Source of the DNA: a virus
IMG/VR virus record: IMGVR_UViG_3300037483_000793
Coordinates: 96,001 to 160,000 of that record
Length of the DNA: 64,000 bases
Direction: 5' to 3' (one strand)
Below are positions 18,148 to 50,575 of the stretch, in pieces; position 1 is the stretch's first letter, and every line of letters starts with the position of its first letter. Under the pieces are notes generated by a model. It was given only the letters and a program-made list of their open reading frames with translations. It had not been told where the DNA came from and ran no database searches. A program made the translations under genes and the position numbers.

Positions 18148-18879
18148 CTAGTGTCGCTTGAGCAGGACCGCTGTGACCAGGCCGAGCACGACTGCGCTGC
18201 CAGTCGCAGCAGCGATCACGATCTTCGTCTTGCGTGACATCGGGGGCTTCGAGACGGCAATCGGCCTTGGCGCAACCGGCGTCACGTCGCCCGACTTGAG
18301 CGCGGTGATCATGTTCTCGATCGCCGCTTTGACGTCGTCGAGTGTCCCGAGCGTCGCGATCGCGATCGTCGGGTCCATCATGCGCGCGTTGTTGATGCGC
18401 GCGGTTACGTCGCTGTTGGGGACCTGTGCCGCGACCGTGCCACCTGCTGCGGCAGTTGCCTGCTGCAGCAGCGCCATCGTCCCGCCGTGGACGACCCACA
18501 ACCGGTTGTTGAAGTCGCTGTACGCGCCGGTCGAAGTGCCGACGTCGAACACGACATCAAAGCTGTGGAACGTGGTCACCATCCCAAGGAAGCGCTCGAA
18601 CACCGCGATCGCATCCTCGGCAGACATGCCTGCAGCACCGAATCCGGGCTGCATGTACATGTTCGGATCGTACATGTAGTGGTACCGCGACGTCTCCGCG
18701 TCGGGGTAGTGCTTGCCGATCACGCCCGAGTAGATGCGGCTCTGATCATAGCGCGCCGCGTGCACGGGAAACTCGGCGGCGTAGAAGTCGGGGAAGCCGT
18801 AGCGGTACGGACCCTTTCCCCACTTCGTGACCAGCTCGTTGGCGCTCTCGCCGAAGGCGCCGTAGTGCGCGATCAGCAC
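18148..18879 (-). CDS. C-terminally membrane-anchored putative virion protein
   Basis: N-terminal MLIAHYGAFG; TM IVIAAATGSAVVLGLVTAVLL + KRH. Confidence 0.75.
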   Translation of the reverse strand: MLIAHYGAFGESANELVTKWGKGPYRYGFPDFYAAEFPVHAARYDQSRIYSGVIGKHYPDAETSRYHYMYDPNMYMQPGFGAAGMSAEDAIAVFERFLGMVTTFHSFDVVFDVGTSTGAYSDFNNRLWVVHGGTMALLQQATAAAGGTVAAQVPNSDVTARINNARMMDPTIAIATLGTLDDVKAAIENMITALKSGDVTPVAPRPIAVSKPPMSRKTKIVIAAATGSAVVLGLVTAVLLKRH

Positions 18880-18882
18880 GGG

Positions 18883-19755
18883 TTACCGGCTCCGCGAACG
18901 GCGCCGACCGAGTGCGGGCGACGTGTAGAGGAAGCCGGGCTTGTGCTTGCCCGCCGCGACCGCACCGACGGTGGTGAGGCCGACCATCGCAGCGGCGCCC
19001 ATGACGATTGGCGCCCACTTGCTGCGCTGTTCGCCTGCCTTGGGCACGACGAACGGAATCGTCGAGACGTCGAGCTGCGTCTGGATCGGAACGTTGCCGC
19101 GCTCGTTGAATTGCGACAACAGCGCCGGGAAGTGATCAGCGACGTCGTTGAGGTAGTCGGCGATCTCCGTCGAATACTTGGCGTAGATGTCCGTGCGTGT
19201 CGGCGACACGAATGCGAGGGCGATGCCCGGGTTCGGGAACTTCTTGAGCATGCCCGCGAGTGTCAGCGCGAGTACCGTGAACTGCATCGTCGAAGCACCG
19301 ACCACACCGTCGTAGCCGCTCTGCGCGCCAACTGGGCTCATGAGGTTCGAGGGCACCGTGAAGATCTGCTCGGATGTCGATCCGTCGCCGGACGGCATCT
19401 GACCTTTCATCTGCCGCCCCGCGAGACCGTTGGTCGGGATGAGGTCGATCACGCGGTCGGCAGCGCGCTGCATGTTGCGAATCGGTGCCTTGCCGCTCTC
19501 GCCAGCCTTGTTGAGCACACACTGCGGACGGTTCGCGTTGTCCTTGGTGCAGTACACGAGCCCGTCATCGGACTTGTACGTGGTGCCCGCACCAGCTGCC
19601 TGGAACACGGAAAAGTCCGATACTGCTGCGCCAAAACCGTAGCCGGTGTTGACCCCGCCGCGCATGCGGGCACGGTCCTGCGCGACCTGGATAAGAACAA
19701 GCGCGGAGGGCGCTTGCGACTGCCCAAATCCGTTGCCGTAGGAGCTGACGATCAT
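18883..19755 (-). CDS. C-terminally anchored putative virion protein with PG-binding-like motif
   Basis: MIVSSYGNGFG leader; YDGVVGAST; TM; tail LGRRRSRSR. Confidence 0.75.
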   Translation of the reverse strand: MIVSSYGNGFGQSQAPSALVLIQVAQDRARMRGGVNTGYGFGAAVSDFSVFQAAGAGTTYKSDDGLVYCTKDNANRPQCVLNKAGESGKAPIRNMQRAADRVIDLIPTNGLAGRQMKGQMPSGDGSTSEQIFTVPSNLMSPVGAQSGYDGVVGASTMQFTVLALTLAGMLKKFPNPGIALAFVSPTRTDIYAKYSTEIADYLNDVADHFPALLSQFNERGNVPIQTQLDVSTIPFVVPKAGEQRSKWAPIVMGAAAMVGLTTVGAVAAGKHKPGFLYTSPALGRRRSRSR

Positions 19756-19795
19756 GTGGTTAGCCTACCACAGAAGCGATCCCAGCAGCGATCGA

Positions 19796-20500
19796 CTACC
19801 GGCGCCGACGACGGCGCGCGAGGTTCGACTTCGACTTCGCTTTCTTGGGCGCGGGCTCACGCAGCACGGCATAACCGACGGCACCGACGACGACGACACC
19901 GGCAACGCCAGCGGTGACCCAGACCCACGTCGGGACCTTGCCCGATGTCGCGATCGGCATGAGCGACGCCGCGGCTGGGTTTGCGCCCGGCATCATGGTG
20001 GGCTGGATCGCTGCGGTCGTCGTTCCTCGTGGCGCCGTCACCATCAGCGACGGTGAAAGCGAAACCGACGTAGGCGGCGTGACGACGGCAATCGGCGTGC
20101 TGGACGGAACCGGCGTCGGCGTCGAGGTCGCAACAGGGAACTGCGATCGCGGCGCGGTCACACCGCCGAGAAACGCTTGCAGCCCGTCCTGAAGGATCTG
20201 TGCGTTCGATGCGATTGCCTCCTTCGTCGAGCCCGGTGACGCGAGCAGCGCTGCCGCCGCGGCCGCGCGTGCGGCCGTGACTGTCTGCGCCCCGATGAAG
20301 CCGTCGACGGTGAGCTGCCCCGTGTACGCAGACAGCCCGAGCTTGGCGTACTGGTTCAGCGTGCCCTGCAGCTGCTGAAGCAGCGCGTGGTTTGCTGCGC
20401 CGATCGCGTAGCAGATGCTGCTGTTGCAGTTGAAGTCGGTGCCTTGCGAGAGCACGCGAGCGGCGCCAAACGCGCCACTGATCGTTGTCGTGAACAGCAC
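19796..20500 (-). CDS. C-terminally anchored protein with PG_binding_1-like domain
   Basis: LQQLQGTLN...VDGFIGAQTVTA; Pro/Thr stalk; TM; RRRRRR tail. Confidence 0.8.
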   Translation of the reverse strand: MLFTTTISGAFGAARVLSQGTDFNCNSSICYAIGAANHALLQQLQGTLNQYAKLGLSAYTGQLTVDGFIGAQTVTAARAAAAAALLASPGSTKEAIASNAQILQDGLQAFLGGVTAPRSQFPVATSTPTPVPSSTPIAVVTPPTSVSLSPSLMVTAPRGTTTAAIQPTMMPGANPAAASLMPIATSGKVPTWVWVTAGVAGVVVVGAVGYAVLREPAPKKAKSKSNLARRRRRR

Positions 20501-20503
20501 GGG

Positions 20504-21082
20504 CTAACCCCGTGCCTTGCGACGGTAGACGACGTAGCCGACGCCGCCGACACCGAGCACGGCCACGACGCCGCCAAGGATCCACCACAGCGTCTTGGAC
20601 TTGACCTTCGGCAGCGCCGCGGCAGCAGGTGACATGCCCGGGATCTGCACAGGTCCGATCGTGGTCGTCTGGTGCACGACTGGCGGCGGCTGGTACGCGA
20701 CAGCAGTACCGGACGGCGACGGCCGCATGCCTCCAGCCTGTTGTACGACGGCGAGGTTCTGAAGCAGGTCGATCAGCATGCCCGCGTTTGCGGCGACGGC
20801 TTCTTTCGTCGATGGCGCCGTCGCGAGACCCAGCCTCTTGATCGCTTGCAGCGCCGTTACCGTAGCGGCGCCGATGAAGCCATCGACGGTGAGCGGCTTG
20901 AAGCCTGCAGCACCGGAGAAGACGTTCGTCTTCATCTGCAGCTGCTTGAACAACGCGTCGTTCGTCGGGCCGATCGCGTAGCAGATGGCGTTGTTGCAGT
21001 TGAAGTCCTTGCCCTGTGTCAGCCCGGCGGCGCTGAAGCCGTAGCCGAAGCCGTTACCGCCGCTGTGAGCCTGAATAAGCAT
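20504..21082 (-). CDS. C-terminally anchored protein with PG_binding_1-like domain (paralog of 19796-20500)
   Basis: QGKDFNCNNAICYAIG vs QGTDFNCNSSICYAIG; VDGFIGAATVTAL; TM + RRKARG. Confidence 0.8.
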   Translation of the reverse strand: MLIQAHSGGNGFGYGFSAAGLTQGKDFNCNNAICYAIGPTNDALFKQLQMKTNVFSGAAGFKPLTVDGFIGAATVTALQAIKRLGLATAPSTKEAVAANAGMLIDLLQNLAVVQQAGGMRPSPSGTAVAYQPPPVVHQTTTIGPVQIPGMSPAAAALPKVKSKTLWWILGGVVAVLGVGGVGYVVYRRKARG

Positions 21083-21130
21083 GGATTCTCCTGTCCAAAC
21101 ATGTATCACGCGAGGTCCGGGACGGGCAAC

Positions 21131-21146
21131 GATCGCGCACGCGATC
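21131..21146. promoter_or_regulatory. GATCGC-N4-GCGATC palindrome
   Basis: GATCGCGCACGCGATC, divergent intergenic region. Confidence 0.85.
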
Positions 21147-21182
21147 GGCCTGCCAAACGCCTGTCAGGCCCTCCGAAACCTC

Positions 21183-21198
21183 GATCGCGTCGGCGATC
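21183..21198. promoter_or_regulatory. GATCGC-N4-GCGATC palindrome
   Basis: GATCGCGTCGGCGATC just upstream of the thioredoxin gene. Confidence 0.8.
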
Positions 21199-21207
21199 CA
21201 GAGTAGG

Positions 21208-21540: not shown

Positions 21541-21553
21541 GAGAGAAACGAGA

Positions 21554-22200: not shown

Positions 22201-22206
22201 GTTGGT

Positions 22207-22658: not shown

Positions 22659-22943
22659 TTACATCCGAGCGGCGACGCACTTGCGGAACGCCTTGGCACT
22701 CTTGCCCTTGCAGGCACGTGCAGCGGCGGCGAGCTTGCGCTTGTACGGCGCGAGGTGGCGCGTCGATGGCGCGCGACGCGGCGAGCAGCCCGGCCCGGTC
22801 TTGCCCTTGAACGAGATGACCTTGCCACGCTTGGTCTTGAAACGGACGATGCCGCTCCGGCAGCTGGCGCCGCGCGCGCGGCTCCGCTTCTTGCTGCGCT
22901 TCTTCCGTGCACCGAGGGCCTCGAACGTGTTGATACCGAACAT
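22659..22943 (-). CDS. highly basic putative DNA-condensing core protein
   Basis: Very Lys/Arg-rich, four Cys, CAGGAG RBS. Confidence 0.7.
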   Translation of the reverse strand: MFGINTFEALGARKKRSKKRSRARGASCRSGIVRFKTKRGKVISFKGKTGPGCSPRRAPSTRHLAPYKRKLAAAARACKGKSAKAFRKCVAARM

Positions 22944-25456: not shown

Positions 25457-25993
25457 TTAGCGGACCTCGCTCGGGGGGCCGATGATGTCGAGGTAACCCT
25501 GGAAGTTGACCTCGATGCGCACGAACTGCACGTCGACGCGCTCGGGCTCGATGTTGGCGTCAAGGATCACGACCGCCGGGTAATCCTGCGTGTCGATCTG
25601 CACCTGGAAGCCCTCGCTGCGGACGATCGTGTAGGGCTCTTCGAGATCCCACGCGCCTGTGTTCTTCTGCAGCAGCTGGCTGACGAGCGTTGCGCTCTTG
25701 GTCAGGTTCTCGTTCTTCGCGAAATCGAGGATGCGCATACGCACCCGCTTCTCCAGCGTGGTCGGTTGCGGTTCGAGCACCGTTGGCGTTGAAAAGCCGT
25801 CGGGCGTGCCCTTGGCCGTCAGGCCGATCCGGACGCGGTGGATCTCGAACGGCTTGTCGACGTTGTGGAGAAACGACGCTTCGGGGAACACGACGCCCGA
25901 CAGGTTCGGACCGACGTCCAGCTCTGCGGCGACGTTGTACGGAATGCGAAACGTGATGTCCTTGCCCGCAAAAGCTACTGGCAGACGGCCCAT
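25457..25993 (-). CDS. putative single jelly-roll capsid protein (minor or second capsid protein)
   Basis: 178 aa, beta-rich, strong codon bias, GAGGAG RBS; ends ...VNFQGYL. Confidence 0.55.
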   Translation of the reverse strand: MGRLPVAFAGKDITFRIPYNVAAELDVGPNLSGVVFPEASFLHNVDKPFEIHRVRIGLTAKGTPDGFSTPTVLEPQPTTLEKRVRMRILDFAKNENLTKSATLVSQLLQKNTGAWDLEEPYTIVRSEGFQVQIDTQDYPAVVILDANIEPERVDVQFVRIEVNFQGYLDIIGPPSEVR

Positions 25994-26114
25994 GGGTGTT
26001 CTCCTCGAAGGTCGATCGCTGCTGCGACTGGTGTAGGGTCACCATCGCGCACGCACTGGATCTCCGCAAGGTTGTTCGCGTTTTTTCAGATACGAGCAGT
26101 GGTAAGTTCTACAA

Positions 26115-26519
26115 GTGCCTCAACGAATCGTGAAGACCGTCCTGCCGGTCGACGGTGTGTTTCGTTTCGAGGCGACGGTACGCGCCGAGGGCAACGCACG
26201 TAGCTTGCGCGTCGCAGTCCCGGCCGCGATCGTGCGCGGGCTCGTGCACGTCGGTTGGACCGGCCGCTGGCTCAGCGTGATGCTCGACGCCGCCCCGTGC
26301 TGCCTGTCCGAAGAACCGCGATTTCGCGTTGCTGTTCGCCCGCATCCGACGAGCGTGATGTTCGCGTTACCGCAGCGTGCCCGTGGCGAGCTACGCGCGG
26401 GTGATCGCGTGGCGTTGACGATCGCGGCTGTCGACGGCCCACGTGCGCCAAGGAGCCGCCGCGTACGCGGCGAGATTCGCCGTGCAAACTCGTCGCTGAC
26501 GCTGCCGTGGCTACGCTGA
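26115..26519 (+). CDS. AbrB-like (swapped hairpin) tandem-domain protein
   Basis: EGNARSLRVAVPAAIVRGL and ...FALPQRARGELRAGDRVALTI. Confidence 0.45.
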   Translation: MPQRIVKTVLPVDGVFRFEATVRAEGNARSLRVAVPAAIVRGLVHVGWTGRWLSVMLDAAPCCLSEEPRFRVAVRPHPTSVMFALPQRARGELRAGDRVALTIAAVDGPRAPRSRRVRGEIRRANSSLTLPWLR

Positions 26520-34435: not shown

Positions 34436-34533
34436 CGTCGGCGCTCATCGAGACGCATCTGCCGCCGCCAGAGTACTCCAGCGGTACCGAACCCGAGCAC
34501 GAATCCGATGAAGAGGAATATACCGTCGGACAT
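34432..34533 (-). CDS. 33-aa single-TM peptide
   Basis: MSDGIFLFIGFVLGFGTAGVLWRRQMRLDERRR; TGATG overlap with the vWA gene stop. Confidence 0.55.
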   Translation of the reverse strand: MSDGIFLFIGFVLGFGTAGVLWRRQMRLDERRR

Positions 34534-36866: not shown

Positions 36867-37010
36867 GTGCTCCGTTCCTTCCCTATTGGGTACGGGGAAC
36901 ATCCTCTCAGAGCACTCTGACAGTCAAGTCACGAGTGACCTCACAACGAAGGAGATCGCATGCTTGGAACGTTTCTGTGCTACTCGGCATCACAAACGTA
37001 GGAGGCCCAC

Positions 37011-38210: not shown

Positions 38211-39113
38211 CTAACCGAGCAGCTTGATCGAGAGGTTCGGTGCCTGTGCATGCGTCAGCGCGCCGTCAGACGGCGTCACGGTCAGTGCCGTGGAGTTGCC
38301 CGCCGGGTTGATGACCGTGACGATGTCGCCTGCGGTCAGCGCAACGAGCACCGTGTTGGTGTTCTGCTGCGTGCCTGCGCCGCTGGTCGTACAGGTGTTG
38401 GCGACAGGCGCGGCGTTGACTGCAAGCTGCAGCTGCGACGCCTCGGAGAACCCAACCTGCCACGACACTTCGTAGACGCCCGTCGCGTCGACGACGAAGT
38501 CGGTGGTCGAGACGCCGCTGCGGATGGCGTGACCGTTCACGGTGGGCCCGTTGCGCGGGAACGGAACCGGTGCACCGACGGCGACAGTCGCCGCATAGTC
38601 GTTGCCCTCGGAGCCGGTGCCCGTCGTCGTGCCGTAGAACATCGCGCCGTTCTGCGGAGTGCCGCCACCTGGGATCGTGACATCGACCTGTCCACCGCCC
38701 GCATCCGTGGCGGTAACACCCGCGCCCGTGAAGTTGAGGATGGAATGTGGGCCGCCCGGGACAACAACGTCCTCGTCCTCGATGGACGTGATCGCACCGC
38801 TGCCACTGCCACCATCACCGCTCGCGATGATGAACGGCGTGAGGCCGATGAACGTCGGCGTGGGCGTCTTCGGGATAACGTCTTCGACCGTGTGCCAGTG
38901 CTCGACGTAGATGTCGACGAGGGCGGCGGCGGACGCCGTACGTGTCACCGTAATGTCGGTCGCGGTCGCGACGATGGTGAAGTTCGGTCCGTTTCCTGCG
39001 ACGAGGTCAGGGAGAACGGGAATGCCGTTGACGTTGAGTCGGTGCGGAAGCACGGCCGGAACGCCGATGGCCAACCCGGTGAAGGACAGAACGTTCTTGA
39101 GAATCGTGCCCAT
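38211..39113 (-). CDS. spike protein with BclA/C1q-like C-terminal domain
   Basis: GVYEVSWQV...QLQLAVN...VLVALTAGDIVTVIN...SIKLLG; start may alternatively be 39152. Confidence 0.7.
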   Translation of the reverse strand: MGTILKNVLSFTGLAIGVPAVLPHRLNVNGIPVLPDLVAGNGPNFTIVATATDITVTRTASAAALVDIYVEHWHTVEDVIPKTPTPTFIGLTPFIIASGDGGSGSGAITSIEDEDVVVPGGPHSILNFTGAGVTATDAGGGQVDVTIPGGGTPQNGAMFYGTTTGTGSEGNDYAATVAVGAPVPFPRNGPTVNGHAIRSGVSTTDFVVDATGVYEVSWQVGFSEASQLQLAVNAAPVANTCTTSGAGTQQNTNTVLVALTAGDIVTVINPAGNSTALTVTPSDGALTHAQAPNLSIKLLG

Positions 39114-39131
39114 GCCCAAAAAGATAACACC

Positions 39132-39147
39132 GATCGCTCGCGCGATC
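39132..39147. promoter_or_regulatory. GATCGC-N4-GCGATC palindrome
   Basis: GATCGCTCGCGCGATC upstream of the spike gene. Confidence 0.8.
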
Positions 39148-39177
39148 ATCAATTTGGCCGCGCCTAGAAACGTCCCC

Positions 39178-39254: not shown

Positions 39255-40004
39255 TTAGACGACGGTGCGCTTGATCAGGCCGTACTTGTACAGCTTGACG
39301 TCGGCGAAGTTGAGCGCGGTCGCGCCGTCGCTCGCCGCCTGCGCGATGCGGATCGGCGCCTCGGGCTGGAACACGCCCTTGTAGCCGAGGTTCTCACGCT
39401 CGTGCACGGGAAGCACGAGAGCGACGCGGTCACGCGGGCTCGGGACGCCGTTCTGCGCCAGCTCGAACGCGGTGTTCGTCGAGAACACGTTGTAGCCGTG
39501 TCCCTGCGGGTAGTCCTGCAGAATGCCCTGCGAGTAGAACTTCGCGTTGTACTCGTACTGGAAGAACGTCACGCGGTCCATCTGGAACAGCGTGGTCAGC
39601 GTCGGCGGATCCGACAGCGCGAACGGGGCAACGCCCGCGCCCGCACCCGGAACTGCCGCGTTGAAGTCGTCCTTCAGCGTCGGCGCGAGCGGCGAGGTGT
39701 CCGGCGCGCGCATGACGCGCGAGACCATGATGCCCCAGCCGTAGACCAGCATCTCCCAGTCCTTCGGCAGACCGGTGTCGCCGTTGCGGGGAACGTTGGT
39801 GTCGACGCGCGTCTGCACGCGCGTGCCGCCGGGGATCGGCTGCGAGCGGCCGGTCGAGAACGCTTCGAGCGGCGTGGTGATGCCGTTCGAGAACTGGACG
39901 GAGCCGTACAGCTTGTCGTCGATCCAGTCCGCGAGGGCGATCGTGCTGCCGTCGGGCAGCGTGAGGGTTGTGGTGGATGGTGCTACGCCAACTGCTCCGG
40001 CCAT
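39255..40004 (-). CDS. putative major capsid protein (jelly-roll-like)
   Basis: 249 aa, extreme GC3 bias, AAGGA RBS, own terminator; DTNxPxxGxxGLPxxWEMLVYGWGI motif; beta-rich; no TM. Confidence 0.6.
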   Translation of the reverse strand: MAGAVGVAPSTTTLTLPDGSTIALADWIDDKLYGSVQFSNGITTPLEAFSTGRSQPIPGGTRVQTRVDTNVPRNGDTGLPKDWEMLVYGWGIMVSRVMRAPDTSPLAPTLKDDFNAAVPGAGAGVAPFALSDPPTLTTLFQMDRVTFFQYEYNAKFYSQGILQDYPQGHGYNVFSTNTAFELAQNGVPSPRDRVALVLPVHERENLGYKGVFQPEAPIRIAQAASDGATALNFADVKLYKYGLIKRTVV

Positions 40005-40169: not shown

Positions 40170-40988
40170 CTAGTTCGAGCCTCCGAACAGGGTCGCGCCG
40201 AAGTGCGTGCCCATCGCCGAGACGCTCGGACCGCCGAGCAGCTTGGTCTGAGCGGCACCCGGGTTGTCGCCCATGCCGTAGCTACCGGCACCGACGAGCG
40301 TCGGCGGGCCCACCAGCTCGGGGCGATCCGCGCCGAAGCCTGCACCGCCACCGCTGATCGAACCCGGCACCGGGTACGCGGGCTCGATTGCCGCGGCACC
40401 GAAGCCGTTGTTCATCATCGAGGGCAGGTTCGCCGGAACGACGTAGCCCGGCTCGATGGAGTGGATGCCGAACCCGCCCTGGTACGGCTGGATGACCGCC
40501 GTCGGGTCGATCGTCACGCCGCCCCAGCCCGAGCCGACGAGCTTCGCCGCGTCCGCGAACGAAGCCTTCTGGTCCGCCGAAGACGCTGCGGCCGTCACGA
40601 GCGCCTGTGCCTCGGCTGCAGTCGCCTTGGGCATGAACACCGACTGCTCCAGCTGACGGAGACCGTTGGTGACGAGCGCGGTTGCTGCTGCAGCCCAGCC
40701 CATGCGACGCGTGCCCGGGAACGCCATCATGACGCCGCCCGCGATGCCGCCCGCGAGGAGACCCGCCAGCTCGGAGTACTGATGGAACTTCGACGTCGGC
40801 TTCGACATCGCGCGCGCGATGATCGCGGCGCCGGTACCGACGCCACCGCCGATGACCGCGCCCCACATCGAGTCACCGCCAGCGGGCTGGCCGAACTCGT
40901 CGAGACCGAACATGTCGACCTCGCCCATGTTGTCGTTGTCGTACTCGCCGAAGTTGCCAGCGAGCGCGCCGTTGATTTCGTTCTTCAT
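40170..40988 (-). CDS. membrane protein with repeated GFG units, co-expressed with the capsid candidate
   Basis: Hydrophobic Gly-rich segments, then GGFGIHSIEP / NGFGAAAIEP / AGFGADRPE / YGMGD / HFGATLFGG. Confidence 0.8.
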   Translation of the reverse strand: MKNEINGALAGNFGEYDNDNMGEVDMFGLDEFGQPAGGDSMWGAVIGGGVGTGAAIIARAMSKPTSKFHQYSELAGLLAGGIAGGVMMAFPGTRRMGWAAAATALVTNGLRQLEQSVFMPKATAAEAQALVTAAASSADQKASFADAAKLVGSGWGGVTIDPTAVIQPYQGGFGIHSIEPGYVVPANLPSMMNNGFGAAAIEPAYPVPGSISGGGAGFGADRPELVGPPTLVGAGSYGMGDNPGAAQTKLLGGPSVSAMGTHFGATLFGGSN

Positions 40989-41037: not shown

Positions 41038-41226
41038 TCAGCGCGGGCAGCGGGAAGAGCCTTGCTTGAACTCCCAACCGGTCCGGCTCTTCTTGCCGGA
41101 CTTGGTACGGGAACCGCGACCGACGTAGCAGAGCTGCATCGTGCAGCCCGTACGCGGGTTCTTGACGTCTTTGCAGAAGCCGACAACCGGCGTGTCGCCG
41201 AGCTGCGCGCGCTTCCGCTTCGACAT
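41038..41226 (-). CDS. small basic Cys-containing protein (62 aa)
   Basis: MSKRKRAQLGDTPVVGFCK...RCPR, 3' end of track ORF 41038..42111. Confidence 0.6.
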   Translation of the reverse strand: MSKRKRAQLGDTPVVGFCKDVKNPRTGCTMQLCYVGRGSRTKSGKKSRTGWEFKQGSSRCPR

Positions 41227-41264
41227 CTTCGGTTCGGCACCGGAGATAGTGAATACGCTCGGCA

Positions 41265-42104
41265 CTACCGCTGCTCCTTGCGAACGTTGACGCTCGTGTT
41301 GCCGGGCCACACGGCTTGTGGGTGTGGCCAGCGCCCTTGGACCATCGGTGCGCGCGTCATGAGTGGCGGGCGCGCCTGCGCATGCGCGTAGTTGATCGGC
41401 ACGTTGTTCGCCGCATGCATCTGCATGACCGGATGCGGTGCGAACTTCCCAGCGAGCTTCGCTTGGAAATTGCGACGAGCCCAAACGTTGTCGTTGTAGT
41501 TGAGGTTCCGGTACGCCTGTGCGTAGTCGAAGTACGGGAACGCGGGCACGTGACCGGCGCGGTTCTGCTTGGGCAGTACCGTGGTCGCCATCATCGGCGC
41601 GCCGAACTGCGCGGGCTTCGTCTGCTGTTCGGCGCGAACCGGGATCGATGCTGCGGGTGCGCCACCTGCAGGCGCGACTTGCGGTTCGCCGCCGGGGCCG
41701 CTGTTGCAGACAATCACGCGGCGCGCGCCGATCTGGATCGTGACGGTGCCGCCGCGCGCGAGTTCCTGCGCGGCCTGTGTGATCGTGCCGACGATGCCAC
41801 CACCAGGTGGCGTGTTCGGGCCGACCGTGATCTTCGAGGTGCCCATGCACACGGTGCCGGTCTTGCCGCGCGCGAACAACTGCGCGAGCTTGCCAGCCGC
41901 GTACGCGACGTCTTCGGGCGACGGATACGGCGAGACGGCCGGTCCGGCACCACGAACGCTCGCGATGAACGGGTCGATCGTGTGCCGCGCCATGTCCACC
42001 GGGCTCACCTGGCGGATCCACATCGGCTCGATGACACCCGTGCGCGTGATTGCGTCGGGACGCCAATGCGCCTGCGCGTGCATCTCGCGGGTCATGTGGA
42101 ACAT
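41265..42104 (-). CDS. hypothetical protein, putative virion component
   Basis: ATG 6 nt after TAGCTT; Gly/Pro/Ala-rich. Confidence 0.7.
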   Translation of the reverse strand: MFHMTREMHAQAHWRPDAITRTGVIEPMWIRQVSPVDMARHTIDPFIASVRGAGPAVSPYPSPEDVAYAAGKLAQLFARGKTGTVCMGTSKITVGPNTPPGGGIVGTITQAAQELARGGTVTIQIGARRVIVCNSGPGGEPQVAPAGGAPAASIPVRAEQQTKPAQFGAPMMATTVLPKQNRAGHVPAFPYFDYAQAYRNLNYNDNVWARRNFQAKLAGKFAPHPVMQMHAANNVPINYAHAQARPPLMTRAPMVQGRWPHPQAVWPGNTSVNVRKEQR

Positions 42105-43446: not shown

Positions 43447-43659
43447 TCATCTCCTCTTGCGGCGACGGCCCCGGAACACCTGCTTGCCGTGGCGCTTGAT
43501 CTTGCCGTTCTCGCACAGTTCGACGACGCGAAGCTCCGCGCCGGGCCACGCCTTCTGAAATTTGCGTGCGGCGTATTTGGCCGTGAACACGACCGAACGC
43601 TTCGTCTTGACTACGTTCCCAACCGTTGCCGAAACCTCGTAGCCGATCTGACAGCTCAC
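43447..43659 (-). CDS. small basic protein (paralog of 42823-43029)
   Basis: MSCQIGYEV...VELCENGKIKRH...FRGRRRKRR; GTGA overlap with protease stop. Confidence 0.7.
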   Translation of the reverse strand: MSCQIGYEVSATVGNVVKTKRSVVFTAKYAARKFQKAWPGAELRVVELCENGKIKRHGKQVFRGRRRKRR

Positions 43660-44459
43660 GCGACGTAGTCCTTGAACTTGCCGTTGGGTGCCTCGCGGCC
43701 GAACATGTTGCCCGGCAGCGTCGTATCGAGCGCGACCCAGCGCGTTGGGCGCGTCTTCGGCAAACCGGCCATGCCGTAGATGTGCGCCCAGTCGCTGCTC
43801 TTGCTCGGCGCCGTGATCCGGAACTTCGCCGGGATGCCGTTGAGAGCGAGCAGCGTCGTCGTCACGACGGTGTGTCCGTCGCAGTCCTCGCCGCCGAATT
43901 CGACGGTGCGCATCGCGCTCTGGAACAGATCGACGCCTTCGACGTCGCCGCCGGGCATCTTCACCGGAGCAACGTCGCCCGTGTAGCGGATGTTCTGCTT
44001 CGTCCAGTTGTAGATCGACTCGGATTCGCACAGCCCGTCACGCGCTGGACAGTTCGCGCCCTTGACACGGAAGTGCCGTTTACCGACGGTGACATCACGA
44101 ACACCGTTGCCGGTGATCGCAAGTGCCAGCTCGCGCATCTGCGGGTTCTGGACACCCTTCCACACCAGATCCTGCAGGATGCTGACGCGCTGATCGATCG
44201 GCATCTCGGGATCGTAGTGATGGGTCAGCGTCATGCCGCCCTTCTGCACGCGTGCTTGTACGCGACCGAGCGTTGCACGCAGCACGTAGGTGCGCCGCTT
44301 TGCGGCAACACCGTAGGCGATCGCGCCACCGATCACGGCGATTCCGCCCACGATGATCGCGCCGATCGCGACTTTCTCGTGCTTGGTCGTCTTGAGACCT
44401 TCGGTTGCTGCACCGAACGCTCCGTCGGGACGTTTGCGCACAAGCGCATGACTACGCAT
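43656..44459 (-). CDS. transglutaminase-like cysteine protease with N-terminal membrane anchor
   Basis: Triad EDCDGH (Cys), WAHIY (His), ALDTT (Asp); IRYTGD; N-terminal TM. Confidence 0.85.
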   Translation of the reverse strand: MRSHALVRKRPDGAFGAATEGLKTTKHEKVAIGAIIVGGIAVIGGAIAYGVAAKRRTYVLRATLGRVQARVQKGGMTLTHHYDPEMPIDQRVSILQDLVWKGVQNPQMRELALAITGNGVRDVTVGKRHFRVKGANCPARDGLCESESIYNWTKQNIRYTGDVAPVKMPGGDVEGVDLFQSAMRTVEFGGEDCDGHTVVTTTLLALNGIPAKFRITAPSKSSDWAHIYGMAGLPKTRPTRWVALDTTLPGNMFGREAPNGKFKDYVA

Positions 44460-44589: not shown

Positions 44590-45306
44590 ATGCTTTTCAC
44601 GCAGCACAACGGTCTCGCACACGCCGCCGCGGACCAGTCCGAGATCGAAGTTCTGCAGAACATGGCCTGCTCGATCGGACCGCGAGTCGACGGTATCGCC
44701 GCGAGTCTGACACTACCGCAAGCCATGGGTGCGTTCAGCACGGCGGGTGCCGCGGGTGCCTGCGGCGGTCGTTCACAGCAAGCCGAACAGCACACGCCGA
44801 CGACAATGTCACGCGGGCTCGGTGCGGATACGCCCTGGTACTCGCCAACGATCACCAAGACGCCGACCACGACGACCACGACAACGAAGACCGCGTACGA
44901 GACGTTCATCGCACCGCTTCGCGAGATGAAAATCGCAGCGATGGACGCGAATGCAGCAGCGACCGCACCGGTCTCGCCCGCAGCGACGCCTGCAAATCCG
45001 ATGGCGACGACGTACCCGGCGGGGACGATTACGGCGTTCGACGTGACCACGAACATGTGGCGTGTCGCGGTGCCGTCGATCGCGTCGGGACTCGGCATCT
45101 TCGGTTCGACGGCGCCGTTCACCGAGATCGCGCCGCTGCCTGCACCTGCACCGGGTGCGACACAGGTGAGTGTGACGCAGCTGCAGAAGCAGACCGGTCA
45201 GCTGCCGATCTACAAGAAGTGGCAGTTCTGGGCGGCGGCAGGCGGCGGCGCCCTCGTGCTGGGCACCGTCACCGCGCTGTTGTTCCGGCGCAAGCGCGCG
45301 GCGTAA
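44590..45306 (+). CDS. tail-anchored virion membrane protein, paralog 1
   Basis: YPAGTITAF...QKQTGQLPIYKKWQFW + TM + RRKRAA. Confidence 0.8.
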   Translation: MLFTQHNGLAHAAADQSEIEVLQNMACSIGPRVDGIAASLTLPQAMGAFSTAGAAGACGGRSQQAEQHTPTTMSRGLGADTPWYSPTITKTPTTTTTTTKTAYETFIAPLREMKIAAMDANAAATAPVSPAATPANPMATTYPAGTITAFDVTTNMWRVAVPSIASGLGIFGSTAPFTEIAPLPAPAPGATQVSVTQLQKQTGQLPIYKKWQFWAAAGGGALVLGTVTALLFRRKRAA

Positions 45307-45316: not shown

Positions 45317-47209
45317 ATGGGTCACCTCACGCAGCTCCACGGCCAGAGTCTGCTCGGCGGGGCAACGACCGCCGTCGGCGGCTACGTTGGCGTGAAGCAG
45401 CTGCAGGAACAGCTACGTCGGATCGCGTACGAGTTCGGCAAGCCAAGCGCCGACCCAGCACAGTATGACGGGACGTTGACGCTCGGAACGGTCATCGCGC
45501 TCGCAAACGCGGCACCGATCGTCGGCGACAAGATTCACGCAGGTGTCGGACAAGCGCTCGATGTCGTGAAGCTGATCAAGGCGCCGATCAGCAAGCTGCC
45601 GTACGGCTCGACGATCATCAACTTCATCTTGTCACCGTGGATTGTCGACAAGGCATTCAGTGCCGTGCTCGGGATCATTCGATTGATTCCTGGTGGCGGT
45701 GGCGTTGCGACGACGATCGACAACGCTATGAAGGCCGTGAAGGCAACGCTCGCGAGTGCAGCCGCACCGATTGCGGCGTCATTGCTCGTCGTCAAGAAGT
45801 CATCGGCGGCGGGGCTCGGCGAAGAAACGCGCGCGGGATTCTGCTGGATCCCGCAATACGTTCGAACCACCGACGGTGTGACCGTGCCAGGTCACTGGGA
45901 GCGTGCGCGCAGCGGTGTTCCGTGTGCGTCACCGCTACCGCCGGGCGTAGTGGCACCAACACCGACGGTCCTGAGGGTCTGTTCAGCGACCGATCAGAGT
46001 GGCTGTCCTGGTGGTGTGTTTGTCTCGAACGCTGCAACTGGCGCAATCGTACCGACGCGCGTCGCACCGCCACCACCGGCAGGAACCGTCTCGACGAGCG
46101 GCGCCGTCGTCCGCGATCACCGTACATGGCCCGCCGGTAAACTGATCGTCCCGACGGATTGGAGCCGCACGCGTACGTACAGCGGCACGGTACCGTTCGC
46201 GAGTCTTGCACCGGCCGATCAACAAGCCTGGAACGCACACAAGAACGACGGACCGTTCGGGCTGAGTACGAGCCTGATCCCGGGCAGCAGCTCGGCGTTC
46301 GGTGATCTCACCGTTCGTCGTGGTGCCATCGCGTTCAAGACGTTTCGCGGTTTCGATAACGCACGCATGGGTGCGTTCTGGGATGAGCGCAATCAAACGC
46401 TCAAGATCATCGTTGTCCCCGAGCCGTCGTCGTCGAAGTACCCATGGGACTACGCGGCAGATGCTGTGAAAGCAGCTGCTGGTGTCATTGGAGATGCCGC
46501 CAGTGCGGTTGGTGGCGCGATTGCGGACATTGCGACGTCGACGTGGAACTGGATCGCCGAGAACGCTGATGACGTGTACGAGGCCGTCAAGAAGTACGGC
46601 TGCGCGCTCGTCAACAACGACATCGTCGTCGGGTTGACAGCGGCAGGTGCAGGTATCGTCGCGTCACCGGCTGCTAGTGCCACGGTCGTGTCTGCGGCGG
46701 GTGCAGGCAAGGCTGCGTGCGCAGCTATGGAAGTCGCCGAGGTGCTCTACGCGATCTACCAGTTGATGACGATGGAGGTGCCCAAGCCGCCTCCACTCAC
46801 GACACCGACACCACCGACGACGACGGTCACGACCGCGGGTGTGCGTCTTCTGCTGCCGACGACCAAGCCGGTGGTTCCGCTCGCCAAGCCACGTTACCCG
46901 GCGGGTGCAATCACGTCGTGGGACGCCAAGCTGCGGCGCTACCGCATCGCAATCCCCGTCGGTACGCAGCTCAATGTCACCGGGTTCGGTGAAGCGCTCG
47001 GCGCCGCGGCATCGCACTTCGAAGTTGAAACGGCCGAGGTTGCGCCGCCAATCGTTTCGACGGTGCCGCTGACCGTGTTTCAGAAGCAAACGGGCACGTT
47101 GCCGCTCTACAAGAACCCGATGTTCTGGATCGCCCTCGGAACGGGCGCAGCGGCAGTCGGTGGCGGTAGTTACGTGCTGTACCGACGTCGACGTGGTTTG
47201 ACAAGGTAG
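45317..47209 (+). CDS. tail-anchored virion membrane protein, paralog 2 (630 aa)
   Basis: PG-binding-like N-domain, VPGHWER, amphipathic helices, YPAGAITSW...QKQTGTLPLYKNPMFW + TM + RRRR. Confidence 0.85.
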   Translation: MGHLTQLHGQSLLGGATTAVGGYVGVKQLQEQLRRIAYEFGKPSADPAQYDGTLTLGTVIALANAAPIVGDKIHAGVGQALDVVKLIKAPISKLPYGSTIINFILSPWIVDKAFSAVLGIIRLIPGGGGVATTIDNAMKAVKATLASAAAPIAASLLVVKKSSAAGLGEETRAGFCWIPQYVRTTDGVTVPGHWERARSGVPCASPLPPGVVAPTPTVLRVCSATDQSGCPGGVFVSNAATGAIVPTRVAPPPPAGTVSTSGAVVRDHRTWPAGKLIVPTDWSRTRTYSGTVPFASLAPADQQAWNAHKNDGPFGLSTSLIPGSSSAFGDLTVRRGAIAFKTFRGFDNARMGAFWDERNQTLKIIVVPEPSSSKYPWDYAADAVKAAAGVIGDAASAVGGAIADIATSTWNWIAENADDVYEAVKKYGCALVNNDIVVGLTAAGAGIVASPAASATVVSAAGAGKAACAAMEVAEVLYAIYQLMTMEVPKPPPLTTPTPPTTTVTTAGVRLLLPTTKPVVPLAKPRYPAGAITSWDAKLRRYRIAIPVGTQLNVTGFGEALGAAASHFEVETAEVAPPIVSTVPLTVFQKQTGTLPLYKNPMFWIALGTGAAAVGGGSYVLYRRRRGLTR

Positions 47210-47227
47210 CAACAGACCGCGTAGCTT
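47198..47227 (+). promoter_or_regulatory. sigma70-type promoter TTGACA-18-TAGCTT
   Basis: Direct reading; palindrome follows 10 nt downstream. Confidence 0.55.
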
Positions 47228-47237
47228 GAAGGAGTTG

Positions 47238-47253
47238 GATCGCGCACGCGATC
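47238..47253. promoter_or_regulatory. GATCGC-N4-GCGATC palindrome
   Basis: GATCGCGCACGCGATC between promoter and AAGGAG RBS. Confidence 0.85.
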
Positions 47254-47276
47254 GCCCTTCCAAGGAGCCCACGCAG

Positions 47277-48197
47277 ATGTTGCAAACCCAGTACTACGGC
47301 AACGGATTTGGCGGGTTCGGCGCGCTGACGTCCAGCGCCGCGACCGCCGATCTCCAACGCTACCTCGTCAGCATCGGCAAGCTCGGTTCGTCCAACGTGA
47401 CGGGCGTGATGAACGACGCGACGATGGGTGTCATCTACAACTTGCTCGTCGCGAGCGCATCGACGGTTTCGAAGATCCCGTTGCTGCCCAGCGACGTTCG
47501 TAGTGGCATCAGCAGCGTGGTCAGCGCGTTGCAGTCTGCAGACAGCAAGATCAAGAGTGTCTCATTCGGGATGGCGACCTTGTCGTCGGTGCTCAGCAAC
47601 TGGGCCACGATCAATGCGGCGGTCCGCGCGGTGAGTAGCTCGGCAGCAAACTCGTTGGCAGCGGCACGTGAGGCCGTCTACAACGCCGTCGGCGGCTACG
47701 CGAGCTACATCCTGAGGGCCGTCAAGATCTTCTTTCCGCCGACGACGCCGACCTCGACGGCGATCCAACCCGCGATTCCGGTACTCACGTCGTCGCTGAC
47801 ATCGCTCTTGAAGACGAACTCGGCCGTGACAGCAACGGCGACGTCCTCGGCCGCGTCGCAATCGTACCCGGCCGGAACGATCTACGCGTTCAGTCAGAAA
47901 CTCGGGCGCTATCGCATCGCGATTCCGAACCCGGGCGGTGTTGCGGGTCTCGGCGTGCAGACTGCCGTCGGTAACTGCATCTTCGGTGACTGCGGTTTCG
48001 GCGCTGCGTATACCGAAGTTGCTCCGTCGACGACAGCTCCGGCCAACGGTGTCCCGACGACGGAAACCGAACTGGAGAAGCGGGCGGGTGCGTTGCCGCT
48101 CTACAAGAAGTGGCAGTTCTGGACCGCGATCGGCGGCGGTGTTGCAGTCGTGGGTACGGGTGCAGCACTTCTCATCCGGCGTAAGCGGAGCGCGTAA
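47277..48197 (+). CDS. tail-anchored virion membrane protein, paralog 3
   Basis: MLQTQYYGNGFGGFGA leader; YPAGTIYAF...LPLYKKWQFW + TM + RRKRSA. Confidence 0.85.
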   Translation: MLQTQYYGNGFGGFGALTSSAATADLQRYLVSIGKLGSSNVTGVMNDATMGVIYNLLVASASTVSKIPLLPSDVRSGISSVVSALQSADSKIKSVSFGMATLSSVLSNWATINAAVRAVSSSAANSLAAAREAVYNAVGGYASYILRAVKIFFPPTTPTSTAIQPAIPVLTSSLTSLLKTNSAVTATATSSAASQSYPAGTIYAFSQKLGRYRIAIPNPGGVAGLGVQTAVGNCIFGDCGFGAAYTEVAPSTTAPANGVPTTETELEKRAGALPLYKKWQFWTAIGGGVAVVGTGAALLIRRKRSA

Positions 48198-49375
48198 TGC
48201 TGCACGCGACCCTCTCGCCGTTGACGACAACTCGGACAACGGAACCTGCGCCGACGACAACGACGACGTCGTACAAGACGGCAACGACGGCGTTGTACCC
48301 GTCGCGTACGACCGAGACCAAAACGGTCGCGCCTGCATTCACATGCGTCAGCAACATCTGTACGGCAGCCGGACAAGTCGGTTTCACGTTCCAGACGCTG
48401 CAGCTGCTGATCAACAACGCGAACGCCAAGATCGGCAGCGGCGCGACACCAATCGCAGTTGATGGTCGTATCGATGCGCGAACCGTCAACGCATTCATGC
48501 CGGTGTCACGCGCCGTTGGCGGAACGCTCGCGATCTTCGATCAGGCTGCGACGCCGCAGCTGCTCGCGACCAACGCGAACGCATACGCGTTGGGCATCGC
48601 GAAGTACCTCGGCATGACGTGGGTCGAAGCGACTGCGACCGTGCCAGGTCACTGGGAGCGGATGCGCGTCGGTCAGACGACACCCAATCTACCGACCCTG
48701 CCCACGGGCACGACGATGCCCGCGCCGACGACAACGACGGCGCCCCCACCACCGTCTGCGCCGATCGCGCCGGGCGTCGTGCCGACACGAACGGAGACTG
48801 CGACGCCGACGCCGATGTACGCGTGTCCCGACGGCTCGCGCGTGACGGATCCGGCGATGTGTCCCAAGCCTGCGCCGCAGCCGACGGCACCGGCACCGGC
48901 ACCGGCACCGGCACCCGCGCCACAACCGGCGCAGCCCGCACCGACGCCGTCTACGCAGCCGACGACACCTGCATCGACGGCGATCGTCTCGACGGCGGCC
49001 GTCGAAACCGAAGGTCGTTTCCAGGGCTGCCTCGCGCGCTACAACAGGACGCGCAAGATCTACTCGATCTACTGCCCGGTCGGTTCGCAAGGTGCGGCGC
49101 CGGGCCTCGGCTACTACGACGGCGAGTACTTCCGTTGTCTGCACGACAACTGTACAGGGCTCGGTGCCGACGCGGTGACGCCGCCGCCGCCCGACGGTTT
49201 CGTCAAGGCCGCTGAGGTCACGACGCTGCCGCGCGCAGGCGAGACACCGGCAGGTGAAGAGCGCGACAAGTTCTTCCGCCTCGACAACCCGCTCATGTGG
49301 GCAGCGTTCGCGGGCGCTGTAGCGGTCGTCGGCGGTGGTGGCTACGTGCTTTACCGACGGAAGCGCGCTGCGTAA
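48197..49375 (+). CDS. tail-anchored virion membrane protein, paralog 4
   Basis: CVSNIC, VDGRIDART, VPGHWER, Pro/Thr stalk, TM + RRKRAA. Confidence 0.85.
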   Translation: MLHATLSPLTTTRTTEPAPTTTTTSYKTATTALYPSRTTETKTVAPAFTCVSNICTAAGQVGFTFQTLQLLINNANAKIGSGATPIAVDGRIDARTVNAFMPVSRAVGGTLAIFDQAATPQLLATNANAYALGIAKYLGMTWVEATATVPGHWERMRVGQTTPNLPTLPTGTTMPAPTTTTAPPPPSAPIAPGVVPTRTETATPTPMYACPDGSRVTDPAMCPKPAPQPTAPAPAPAPAPAPQPAQPAPTPSTQPTTPASTAIVSTAAVETEGRFQGCLARYNRTRKIYSIYCPVGSQGAAPGLGYYDGEYFRCLHDNCTGLGADAVTPPPPDGFVKAAEVTTLPRAGETPAGEERDKFFRLDNPLMWAAFAGAVAVVGGGGYVLYRRKRAA

Positions 49376-49587
49376 TGCGCGATCCTGTCACGGGGCATTG
49401 TGTTGCAGGGTTTCATGAAACCTCGTGGGGCTGCGCGAAAAATAGACGTACCGGATTCGGCGCCGACGACAGCGGCAACCGCAAGGCCGTGTGGCTCGGC
49501 GCCGTCGGTCTCGGTATCTCAGCCGCGATCATGATCGCGATGGGCTTTCACAAGCCGCCACCGCCAGTTCGCCGTCGGCGTACGTAA
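49375..49587 (+). CDS. small single-TM protein with basic tail
   Basis: MRDPVTGHC...TGFGAD...TM...RRRRT. Confidence 0.65.
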   Translation: MRDPVTGHCVAGFHETSWGCAKNRRTGFGADDSGNRKAVWLGAVGLGISAAIMIAMGFHKPPPPVRRRRT

Positions 49588-49589
49588 GC

Positions 49590-49605
49590 GATCGCTCGCG
49601 CGATC
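49590..49605. promoter_or_regulatory. GATCGC-N4-GCGATC palindrome
   Basis: GATCGCTCGCGCGATC, 5 nt before TAGAGT. Confidence 0.85.
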
Positions 49606-49625
49606 CATGATAGAGTTTGGGTCGC

Positions 49626-50141
49626 ATGCTCATGGCGACCCAAAACTCAGTGCGGTTCGCGCACAACGTTGGTGTGGCGCCAGCCACCACGACGATGCGG
49701 CTCGGCGGACCGTCATTGCCGCCGCTACCGTCTGTGATGCAGTCGGTGCTGCCGGGTCGAACGGCGCCGAACCCTGTTGCTGTGACCCAACCGAGGTATT
49801 TCATGCCCTACGCATCGCTCGAAGATCTCCGCTCTGCGAATGCCGGGTTCGGCATCGTGAACGAGTCGGACGCGTGGCTGACCGGTCGGCCGTATGGCTT
49901 GCCGGGCACGGCGACGATCCAGCTCATGCAGCGGCCGGGCGGCTACAAGAGCCCCAACGGCACGCACTACGACGCGCGGATGTTCGGTGACGCCGACGCA
50001 ACGTTGCAGTTGATCCTCGCGCAGCAGCAGGCGCAGGCAGCTCACCTCAAACGCATCGCGTTTTGGCAGGCGTTCGCAGGCGGTGTCACGATCGCGGGTG
50101 TCGCTGCGGGCATCGCTATCGGGCTCATGCGGGGGCGCTAA
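49626..50141 (+). CDS. tail-anchored membrane protein
   Basis: AGFG and MFGD motifs; C-terminal TM + RGR. Confidence 0.75.
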   Translation: MLMATQNSVRFAHNVGVAPATTTMRLGGPSLPPLPSVMQSVLPGRTAPNPVAVTQPRYFMPYASLEDLRSANAGFGIVNESDAWLTGRPYGLPGTATIQLMQRPGGYKSPNGTHYDARMFGDADATLQLILAQQQAQAAHLKRIAFWQAFAGGVTIAGVAAGIAIGLMRGR

Positions 50142-50143
50142 CC

Positions 50144-50575
50144 ATGTACGTCAACGAGATGCAGCGCACGATCAACGGCTTCGGTCAGGCACCCGGCGGC
50201 AAACCGAACAGCATCATCCCGTATGGCCACTGGCAGCCGTACCGGCCGGGTGCGATCACGCGCGGATTCGGCGATGTTCCGAACGACTTCGAGGCGTCGG
50301 TCGATCTGCAGTACATCCCGGTCCGTCAGGGCTGGTACTACGGTCAGCCCGTCAACGGTGGCAGCTACCCGGATGCGGGACTGCCTCGTCGGGGATTCGG
50401 TGATGCGACATCGGAAGCGGCGCTACAGCAGCTTGCGAAGACGGAGAAGCTGCAAACGATCTTGCAGGTTGTCTCGACGCTCTCGATCGCGACCGTCGCG
50501 ACGCTCGCGATCCTGCGCGCGATCAGATCCCGCCGCGGTGGCGGGGACGCACGGTTCTTCGGCGACGACGACTAG
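50144..50575 (+). CDS. membrane protein with three GFG motifs
   Basis: NGFGQ, RGFGD, RGFGD; TM; RSRR. Confidence 0.75.
   Translation: MYVNEMQRTINGFGQAPGGKPNSIIPYGHWQPYRPGAITRGFGDVPNDFEASVDLQYIPVRQGWYYGQPVNGGSYPDAGLPRRGFGDATSEAALQQLAKTEKLQTILQVVSTLSIATVATLAILRAIRSRRGGGDARFFGDDD

Follow-up and report, generated by a model that had tools for sequence, protein, structure and literature searches.

In a 64,000-nucleotide stretch of viral DNA (bases 96001-160000 of a 195,792-bp virus record in IMG/VR, 62% G+C; hereafter the window), a short N-terminal leader ending in phenylalanine or leucine followed by glycine ([FL]-Gly) recurs on otherwise unrelated proteins of the virion module. A preliminary description of this DNA, made without database searches, had drawn attention to the motif as a putative maturation cleavage code or a short capsid-docking motif. 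It is a real, position-specific signal that is conserved in unrelated families throughout the clade, and it occurs together with a transglutaminase-fold enzyme whose catalytic triad is intact. The leader is very probably functional. More tentatively, I propose by analogy that it resembles the capsid targeting sequence (CTS) of phage T4, in that its first residues would target the protein and the transglutaminase-fold enzyme would trim it at [FL]-Gly.

Gene calling with a codon model gave 326 genes in this genome, 36 of which I classed as C-tail-anchored (CTA), having a hydrophobic segment within the last 45 residues. Nine of the 36 CTA proteins have the pattern G-x(0,1)-[FL]-G within residues 2-25, against 1.45 +/- 1.2 expected from composition-preserving shuffles of each protein, and 0 of 1000 shuffles reached nine carriers. 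The 290 non-CTA proteins show no excess (10 against 7.2 expected). Enrichment beyond composition is confined to CTA proteins. One of the nine N-terminal matches is a false positive of the Rossmann GxGxxG type; counted by family, 8 of 33 CTA families carry the motif versus 10 of 290 other proteins (p = 1e-4). An ML start is likewise found in 12/36 CTA proteins and 16/290 others (p = 5e-6). From residue 26 onward, G-[FL]-G occurs 22 times in CTA proteins where 6.1 copies are expected (z = 7), just two of the 22 lying in hydrophobic segments, whereas observed and expected numbers agree in non-CTA proteins (31 and 31.4). Glycine occupies position P3 at 31-33% of CTA sites versus 9-11% of those in other proteins, and the P1' residue at CTA [FL]-G sites is A, D or Q. 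In composition the leaders are uncharged, with an excess of Q, H, T, S, G and aromatic residues. Glutamine is the most enriched residue of all (1.8-2.0 fold) and appears within residues 3-8 of 13/36 CTA proteins against 49/290 others (p = 0.011); the corresponding figures are 20/49 and 55/282 (p = 0.003) in G003, one of three related IMG/VR genomes (G001-G003) used for comparison.

The pattern recurs in 17 distant loci that I located by way of the enzyme (34-52% enzyme identity). There, [FL]G falls within residues 2-25 of 84/160 CTA proteins versus 88/381 other proteins (p = 5e-11), and an ML start is found in 38/160 versus 29/381 (p = 1e-6). The density of [FL]G is greatest at residues 6-15, with 3.6-7.1 copies per 100 residues against about 1, and the peak spans residues 2-20 before returning to baseline by residue 25. 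Leucine mostly stands in place of phenylalanine in the distant relatives. Furthermore, the pattern holds in G001-G003, L035 and L037-L039, and it persists in homologues down to about 30% identity. In L036, a Logan contig from a relative with 45% G+C, six adjacent paralogues (787-4581) end in P-[ES]-H-[LM]-[RK]-P-x-[RK]-F, which may be a different terminal tag in the low-GC branch of the clade.

The leader consists of two parts: a near-invariant, uncharged start, M-L-x-[TA]-x-aromatic, and then a Gly/aromatic linker of 5-45 residues, which ends in [FL]-G where the domain begins (Table 1). The preliminary description gave too little weight to the most conserved element of the leader, its start, behind which the variable-length linker follows; a conserved ML start followed by a variable linker points to a targeting or docking peptide, its second option, with or without later trimming. 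In an alignment of 22 homologues of F4c, down to 36% identity, M1, L2, T4, Q5 and G15 are at least 90% conserved, the last [FL]-G-A abuts the conserved domain behind a linker of 5 to about 45 residues, and mean conservation is 0.78 over residues 1-6 versus 0.63 over residues 61-306. An internal C-G-[FL]-G-A is also conserved in F4c. In the F2 family, M1 and G40 are 100% and G11 94% conserved. Two [FL]-G sites, the second being G-[FL]-G-A with the invariant Gly40, lie on either side of a basic spacer of poor conservation. A third, P-A-[LF]-G (P-A-L-G in F2 itself), precedes the poly-Arg tail. Homologues at about 30% identity lack the spacer, and all that lies between ML and G-L-G-[ADE] has changed, yet these two elements are kept and ML ... 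G-L-G-[ADE] runs straight into the domain. Yet another family has a leader of 5-18 residues that always ends in L-G directly before [FILM]-[IV]-P-x-W-Q-F. F1 orthologues keep ML and the glycine before E-S-A-N-E-L, F3b orthologues in G002 read G-L-G-A, and F6 has two conserved internal [FL]-G-D sites with indels just upstream. Of the sites G-G-F-G-D and G-G-L-G-A in the 203-aa membrane protein, only the second is kept in G003. The internal site of F4d, earlier given as TGFGAD, carries leucine in place of the phenylalanine.

Table 1. Leader-carrying genes, the candidate enzyme and associated genes, in window positions.
Feature	Coordinates	Strand	Remarks
F1, 243-aa CTA protein	18148..18879	-	leader residues 1-10 (18850-18879): ML start, then G-A-F-G
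F2, 290-aa CTA protein	18883..19755	-	leader residues 1-11, G-N-G-F-G then Q
F3a, 234-aa CTA protein	19796..20500	-	leader residues 1-12; weak peptidoglycan-binding match; paralogue of 20504-21082
F3b, 192-aa CTA protein	20504..21082	-	leader residues 1-16, two aromatic-Gly repeats
F4a, 238-aa CTA paralogue	44590..45306	+	ML-F-T-Q start; leader without FG; internal R-G-L-G-A-D
F4b, 630-aa paralogue	45317..47209	+	weak leader M-G-H..L-L-G-G; orthologues start ML
F4c, 306-aa CTA paralogue	47277..48197	+	M-L-x-T-Q start, Gly/aromatic linker, [FL]-G-A at domain start; best example
F4d, 392-aa paralogue	48197..49375	+	ML start; internal T-G-L-G-A-D
F5, 171-aa CTA protein	49626..50141	+	ML leader, capsid-arm copy V-G-V-A-P-x-T-T-T, then L-G
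F6, 143-aa CTA protein	50144..50575	+	leader ends N-G-F-G then Q
203-aa membrane protein	11997..12608	-	ML start; internal G-G-F-G-D, G-G-L-G-A; Q-G-F-G-K before basic tail
Transglutaminase-fold Cys-His-Asp protein, N-terminal membrane anchor	43656..44459	-	candidate leader-processing enzyme
249-aa candidate jelly-roll major capsid protein	39255..40004	-	beta-rich; most conserved gene of structural module; possible docking partner
272-aa conserved protein adjoining capsid gene	40170..40988	-	conserved D-[ML]-[FL]-G-L-x-x-[FY]-G near N-terminus; FG-rich C-terminus
75-aa basic, Cys-rich, core-like protein	41038..41265	-	M-P-S-V-F-T-I-x-G leader; conserved L-G directly before D-T-P-V-V-G
94-aa highly basic protein	22659..22943	-	short neutral N-terminal piece ends L-G directly before A-R-K-K-R; conserved in G001, G003

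All the N-termini first quoted for these genes were found where they had been placed. At 18879 and 20500 the gene starts with GTG, in each case the earliest start codon available downstream of an in-frame stop and 3 nucleotides past the stop of the upstream gene, and orthologues in G001-G003 keep the same starts. The start of the small basic, Cys-rich gene does move, from an ATG at 41226 in the earlier account to a GTG at 41265 that overlaps the upstream TAG by 1 nucleotide. When the first 25 residues were removed, an all-against-all BLAST linked only {19796, 20504} and {44590, 45317, 47277}; with only two paralogue groups, the leader therefore sits on at least eight unrelated families. Codon choice differs between leaders, so the leader was rejected as a DNA-level element and its conservation must lie at the level of protein. 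A Sec, Tat or lipoprotein signal peptide was also rejected: these have a basic n-region and a hydrophobic h-region of about 7-15 residues, but lysine and arginine are absent from residues 1-8 of 13 of 15 leaders and the longest apolar run is at most 5 residues. Separately from the leader itself, the palindrome GATCGC-N4-GCGATC, or a near copy, stands 15-40 nucleotides upstream of several leader-carrying operons (window about 19770, 44560, 47245, 49595) and also upstream of genes outside the window, an arrangement that fits a common late regulon.

The candidate enzyme is the only protein in the genome to match PF01841 (24.8 bits against a cut-off of 23 in a six-frame search; 22.9 bits in a protein-level scan). 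Its triad, C193, H226 and D245, is invariant in 32 homologues down to 48% identity. It has 296 homologues on the same kinds of contigs as those of the capsid candidate, most of them carrying PF01841, and is a single-copy, clade-wide core gene that adjoins its putative substrates and is transcribed divergently from the substrate array. Judging by the structural model (predicted local distance difference test score, pLDDT, of 83), the core fold is certainly that of a transglutaminase. The best match is 3kd4 (Z 12.1, root-mean-square deviation, rmsd, 3.0 Å over 138 residues), and 3isr follows (Z 11.4), both being uncharacterised 'putative proteases'. Factor XIII, TG2 and TG3 score Z about 10-11 (rmsd 3.7 Å over about 155 residues), PNGase Z 10, the phage pseudomurein isopeptidase PeiP Z 9.4 and LapG Z 8.6-9.0, which places structural neighbours of all these activities within about 3 Z units. 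A PDB sequence search with the enzyme gave a chance match only.

The preliminary description had suggested a viral cysteine protease and had pointed to adenovirus and poxvirus processing as precedents. An invariant Cys-His-Asp triad in a core gene close to the putative substrates lends some support to the first part of this suggestion, but the fold is ambiguous as to activity and there is no clan-CE protease: PF02902 and PF00770 had no match at E <= 1 anywhere in the 195.8-kb genome (PF03290 was not searched). The adenovirus consensus fits just 3 of 15 leaders, one of them a Rossmann false positive, versus 18 of 290 other proteins, and was rejected as a reading of the leaders. Because protease clan and consensus were both tested and neither agrees, the system is not a member of the adenovirus type, although it may nevertheless work like one. 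The G-A-F-G that had been counted in the enzyme's own sequence is not conserved among homologues; D-G-A-F-G lies in a non-conserved stretch and was rejected as an autoprocessing site.

For the candidate capsid protein, 438 homologues were found, on metagenomic contigs that reach 232 kb. Among named atlas clusters, those of the PM2 P2 and PRD1 P3 capsid proteins lie nearest, at 0.77, a value that serves as a lead only. The best alignments of the structural model (pLDDT 65) are to capsid proteins from viruses that contain a membrane, namely HCIV-1 (Z 5.7, rmsd 3.7 Å, 128 residues), SPV1 (Z 5.1) and PRD1 P3 (Z 4.9), all below the noise guide of Z 8, and Foldseek against the PDB returned weak papilloma/polyoma jelly-roll rows only. 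Protein searches against GenBank phages and sequence and profile searches against the PDB found no match for it. F5 contains a copy of the N-terminal arm of this protein (V-G-V-A-P-G-T-T-T), two hydrophobic positions included, and in the distant loci 0-13 residues separate the copy from the start, with [LF]-G coming after it.

The [FL]-G boundary extends to proteins of another kind. Small basic core-like proteins keep [FL]-G directly before their poly-basic or Cys-rich part in all relatives, and the L-G directly before A-R-K-K-R in the 94-aa protein resembles the arrangement in adenovirus pVII. A second N-terminal leader, M-P-[SH]-V-F-T-[LI]-x-G, is common to two unrelated proteins, the 75-aa core-like protein (41038-41265, minus strand) and a 141-aa tail-anchored protein at 25935-26360 of the genome (plus strand; L002:5935-6360). 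It is kept in G001-G003, L035 and L037, each of the two proteins having a conserved L-G 10-25 residues farther on.

How might these pieces work together? As the best explanation, still a tentative one, a two-part N-terminal leader would mark the proteins that are built into the particle, and the [FL]-Gly motif would be the end of that leader. Recognition would rest with its uncharged, strand-prone start (M-L-x-[TA]-x-aromatic or His), through which tail-anchored membrane proteins would be recruited to the shell or scaffold as it assembles. Behind it, a flexible Gly/aromatic tether of very variable length would form the second part and lead up to the folded domain, at whose start stands [FL]-Gly followed by a small or acidic residue. 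It is at [FL]-Gly that the membrane-anchored enzyme, with its transglutaminase fold and Cys-His-Asp triad, would trim the leader during maturation. The same trimming could take place at internal copies and at the neutral pro-pieces of the small basic core-like proteins. Cleavage at [FL]-G, taken by itself, is a good possibility that falls short of being probable.

Several observations weigh against trimming, and in particular against trimming by this enzyme. The strict conservation of the first leader residues exceeds what a mere cleavage site needs. In F1 the phenylalanine is replaced by asparagine in one orthologue (G003), and one conserved site in F2 comes after the membrane anchor and thus lies on the opposite side from the N-terminal sites. 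The idea that internal copies mark domain borders holds in single cases, such as the F6 family, but fails in a systematic test, in which conservation and gaps upstream versus downstream of conserved [FL]G were like those of other proteins (n = 15, p = 0.76). Measured column by column, the conservation of [FL]G relative to other dipeptides gave odds ratios of 2.76 for CTA and 2.82 for other proteins, a comparison that is uninformative, partly because the variable linkers misalign. As for the enzyme, the modelled fold fails to separate a peptidase from a transglutaminase/crosslinker or a wall isopeptidase. Since the genes beside it encode wall-acting enzymes, a role as an entry lysin is conceivable in place of one as a maturation protease.

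A rival reading is a permanent docking motif that is never cut. The start and the [FL]-Gly 'hooks' on the tether would bind either a scaffold or the inside of the jelly-roll shell, the tail-anchored proteins, and hence the membrane, would be stapled to the capsid, and the transglutaminase-fold protein would have another role, for example as an entry lysin. I regard this as rather unlikely when judged on its own, and docking as nearly as likely as a trimmed leader. It accounts well for a leader whose first 5-6 residues are the most conserved and whose tether is free in length, and the copy of the capsid candidate's own arm in F5 suggests docking by mimicry of that arm. The proximity of the enzyme fold to PeiP, the wall-acting enzyme genes around it and the negative outcome of both boundary tests (relative [FL]G conservation and upstream/downstream asymmetry) agree with it as well. 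On the other hand, the motif is also found in non-membrane basic proteins, directly before their poly-basic parts, and several copies can occur in one protein, some of them far from the N-terminus; the capsid candidate's model, at pLDDT 65, is too poor to dock against.

Alternatively, other machinery might read the leader, either a pathway by which tail-anchored proteins are chaperoned or inserted into the membrane, or a route of export or ejection at entry, with no tie to capsid docking or to the enzyme. In its favour, the leaders carry no charge and abound in Q, T, S, H and G, features common in N-terminal secretion signals that are not cleaved, and they go very closely with a C-terminal anchor and basic tail. 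However, tail-anchor pathways normally read the C-terminal segment, the leaders have no Sec, Tat or lipoprotein features, and the basic non-membrane proteins share the [FL]-G boundary, all of which makes this explanation improbable. Somewhat less probable again is that the leaders are glutamine-donor tags, the transglutaminase-fold enzyme crosslinking a leader glutamine to a lysine of the capsid or scaffold protein and so linking membrane proteins to the shell by covalent bonds. The model of the enzyme is as near to factor XIII, TG2 and TG3 as to the putative proteases, glutamine is the most enriched leader residue and is over-represented at residues 3-8 of CTA proteins, and Q5 is 90% conserved in F4c. 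Yet several leaders, that of F1 for example, have no glutamine in their first 12 residues, the conserved [FL]-G is left unexplained, and bacterial Transglut_core proteins with a motif of the G-x-D-C-D-x-H type are generally regarded as peptidases. Finally, that the leader has no function at all, and reflects a composition rich in glycine, descent from one small N-terminal module or misplaced starts, is very improbable: some carriers are indeed paralogues and CTA proteins are Gly-rich (the motif occurs in 7.1% of their internal 19-residue windows versus 3.3% for all proteins), but composition-keeping shuffles give 1.45 carriers where 9 are observed, at least eight unrelated families carry the leader, its positional peak is at baseline after residue 25, it is conserved to about 30% identity and replicated in the 17 distant loci, and the starts are fixed by upstream stops and orthologues.

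Returning to a leader that is first recognised and then trimmed, its closest analogue may be the T4 CTS. In T4, residues 4 and 7 of the CTS target the protein and residues 8 and 10 direct its processing (PMC9026906). The likeness lies in a peptide on the scale of ten residues at the N-terminus of unrelated particle-bound proteins (in T4, IPI-III and Alt, from which the prohead protease gp21 removes it). In T4 the peptide loads varied cargo; here, two separately conserved elements on either side of a free spacer may divide their tasks in a similar way. The systems differ in that T4 is a tailed phage with an HK97-fold capsid, whereas I found no HK97 capsid, terminase or sheath gene here; in that its protease is a serine-type S77 enzyme cutting after glutamate in [LI]-x-E, whereas here no S77/S78 protease was found and the boundary is [FL]-Gly; and in that the T4 carriers are soluble internal proteins, whereas here they are tail-anchored membrane proteins for which targeting and cleavage would have to be read across.

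The clan-CE systems (adenovirus protease, AVP; pS273R of African swine fever virus; poxvirus I7) share other features. They belong to jelly-roll, membrane- or core-containing dsDNA viruses, probably the type of this virus too, and many of their virion precursors carry short Gly-containing sites. Among those precursors are basic core proteins whose pro-pieces are short and neutral and, in the case of poxviruses, a membrane protein. Unlike them, this virus has a bacterial host, no clan-CE gene that I could find, and a membrane-anchored candidate of transglutaminase (clan-CA-like) fold. The sites of AVP are (M/I/L)XGG-X and (M/I/L)XGX-G (PMC4246237), with the hydrophobic residue at P4 and not, as here, at P2. 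Possibly, though I hold this to be more doubtful than trimming itself, [FL]-Gly is a virus-wide maturation code that is read by a membrane-anchored transglutaminase-fold cysteine peptidase and fused to a T4-CTS-like targeting peptide loading tail-anchored membrane and basic core proteins; if so, a giant tail-less jelly-roll virus of bacteria would have arrived independently at the Gly-directed processing of adenoviruses, asfarviruses and poxviruses.

With regard to fold, LapG and other bacterial transglutaminase-like cysteine proteinases (BTLCP) offer the same transglutaminase-like arrangement of Cys, His and Asp. LapG is a precedent for specific cutting by an enzyme of this fold: it makes a single cut between two small residues near the N-terminus, at a site that is conserved in the substrates whose genes lie nearby (PMC3032545). 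It is, however, a soluble, periplasmic, Ca-dependent regulator of adhesin release that cuts A-A around residue 108, whereas the enzyme here has a viral-membrane anchor and many putative substrates with an [FL]-G motif, and is structurally closer to 3kd4 and 3isr.

Two further systems bear on the architecture of the leader. The cargo-loading peptides of encapsulins and microcompartments are short conserved terminal peptides that, by a Gly-rich variable tether, dock unrelated cargo inside a shell. They have in common with the leader the conserved start and the tether of free length, but they are not cleaved, are mostly C-terminal in encapsulins and are amphipathic helices in microcompartments, while docking is hypothetical here. 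The Prp/L27-type motif of the capsid and scaffold proteins of staphylococcal phage 80alpha is a short N-terminal leader with a conserved end that unrelated proteins have in common and that is removed by a dedicated cysteine protease; in that case the enzyme belongs to the host, the motif ends in F-F followed by A, and the proteins are soluble and belong to a tailed phage.

The genome as a whole supplies context for these comparisons. It encodes a HerA/FtsK-type (DUF87) ATPase, and profile searches of it found no match to terminase-6N, HK97 capsid or tail sheath, nor the S77/S78 prohead proteases (PF03420, PF04586). The virus is probably a large, apparently tail-less, membrane-containing jelly-roll virus of bacteria, a type that serves here as context; a literature search found no described large tail-less bacterial jelly-roll virus, and a DNA similarity search returned no match. 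The record is listed as linear without end repeats, but bases 1-177 and 195616-195792 of the genome form a direct terminal repeat of 177 bp with 3 mismatches, and the record is probably a complete genome.

Other genes of the window have affinities of their own. A 789-aa vWA protein (34533-36902, minus strand; phrog_2426, E 4e-170) is 33-34% identical to proteins of Ackermannviridae-type tailed phages such as Dickeya LIMEstone1 and Salmonella SKML-39, and links this virus to the tailed phages. Within the virion module lies a dual-specificity phosphatase (50606-51064, plus strand; PF00782, E 6e-10), which relatives keep in the same place (L008-L010, L037). The product of 38211-39149 (minus strand) has a hydrophobic segment at its N-terminal end, then a collagen-like stretch and, C-terminally, a domain of BclA-C/C1q type (PF18573, E 2e-11), and is likely to be a surface fibre or spike. 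A 793-aa protein (51689-54070, minus strand), Gln/Pro-rich with a charged coiled coil and kept in relatives, is a candidate scaffold or tape-measure protein; it has a weak match to the Microvirus H pilot protein, below the cut-off (E 8e-4).

Propeptides and a maturation protease are textbook traits of tailed phages and of the eukaryotic relatives of the jelly-roll viruses, whereas neither is known from membrane-containing jelly-roll viruses of bacteria such as PRD1 and PM2. A portable leader on about a dozen unrelated particle proteins would offer a first handle on how membrane and core proteins are sorted in a tail-less bacterial virus of 70-220 kb, and it would make it possible to ask if Gly-directed maturation arose convergently or is an ancient trait of this virus realm. 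Like the T4 CTS, it could also serve as a short tag with which foreign proteins are loaded into such particles. Finally, in a clade where almost every gene is an orphan, the leader provides a practical sequence marker for virion proteins.

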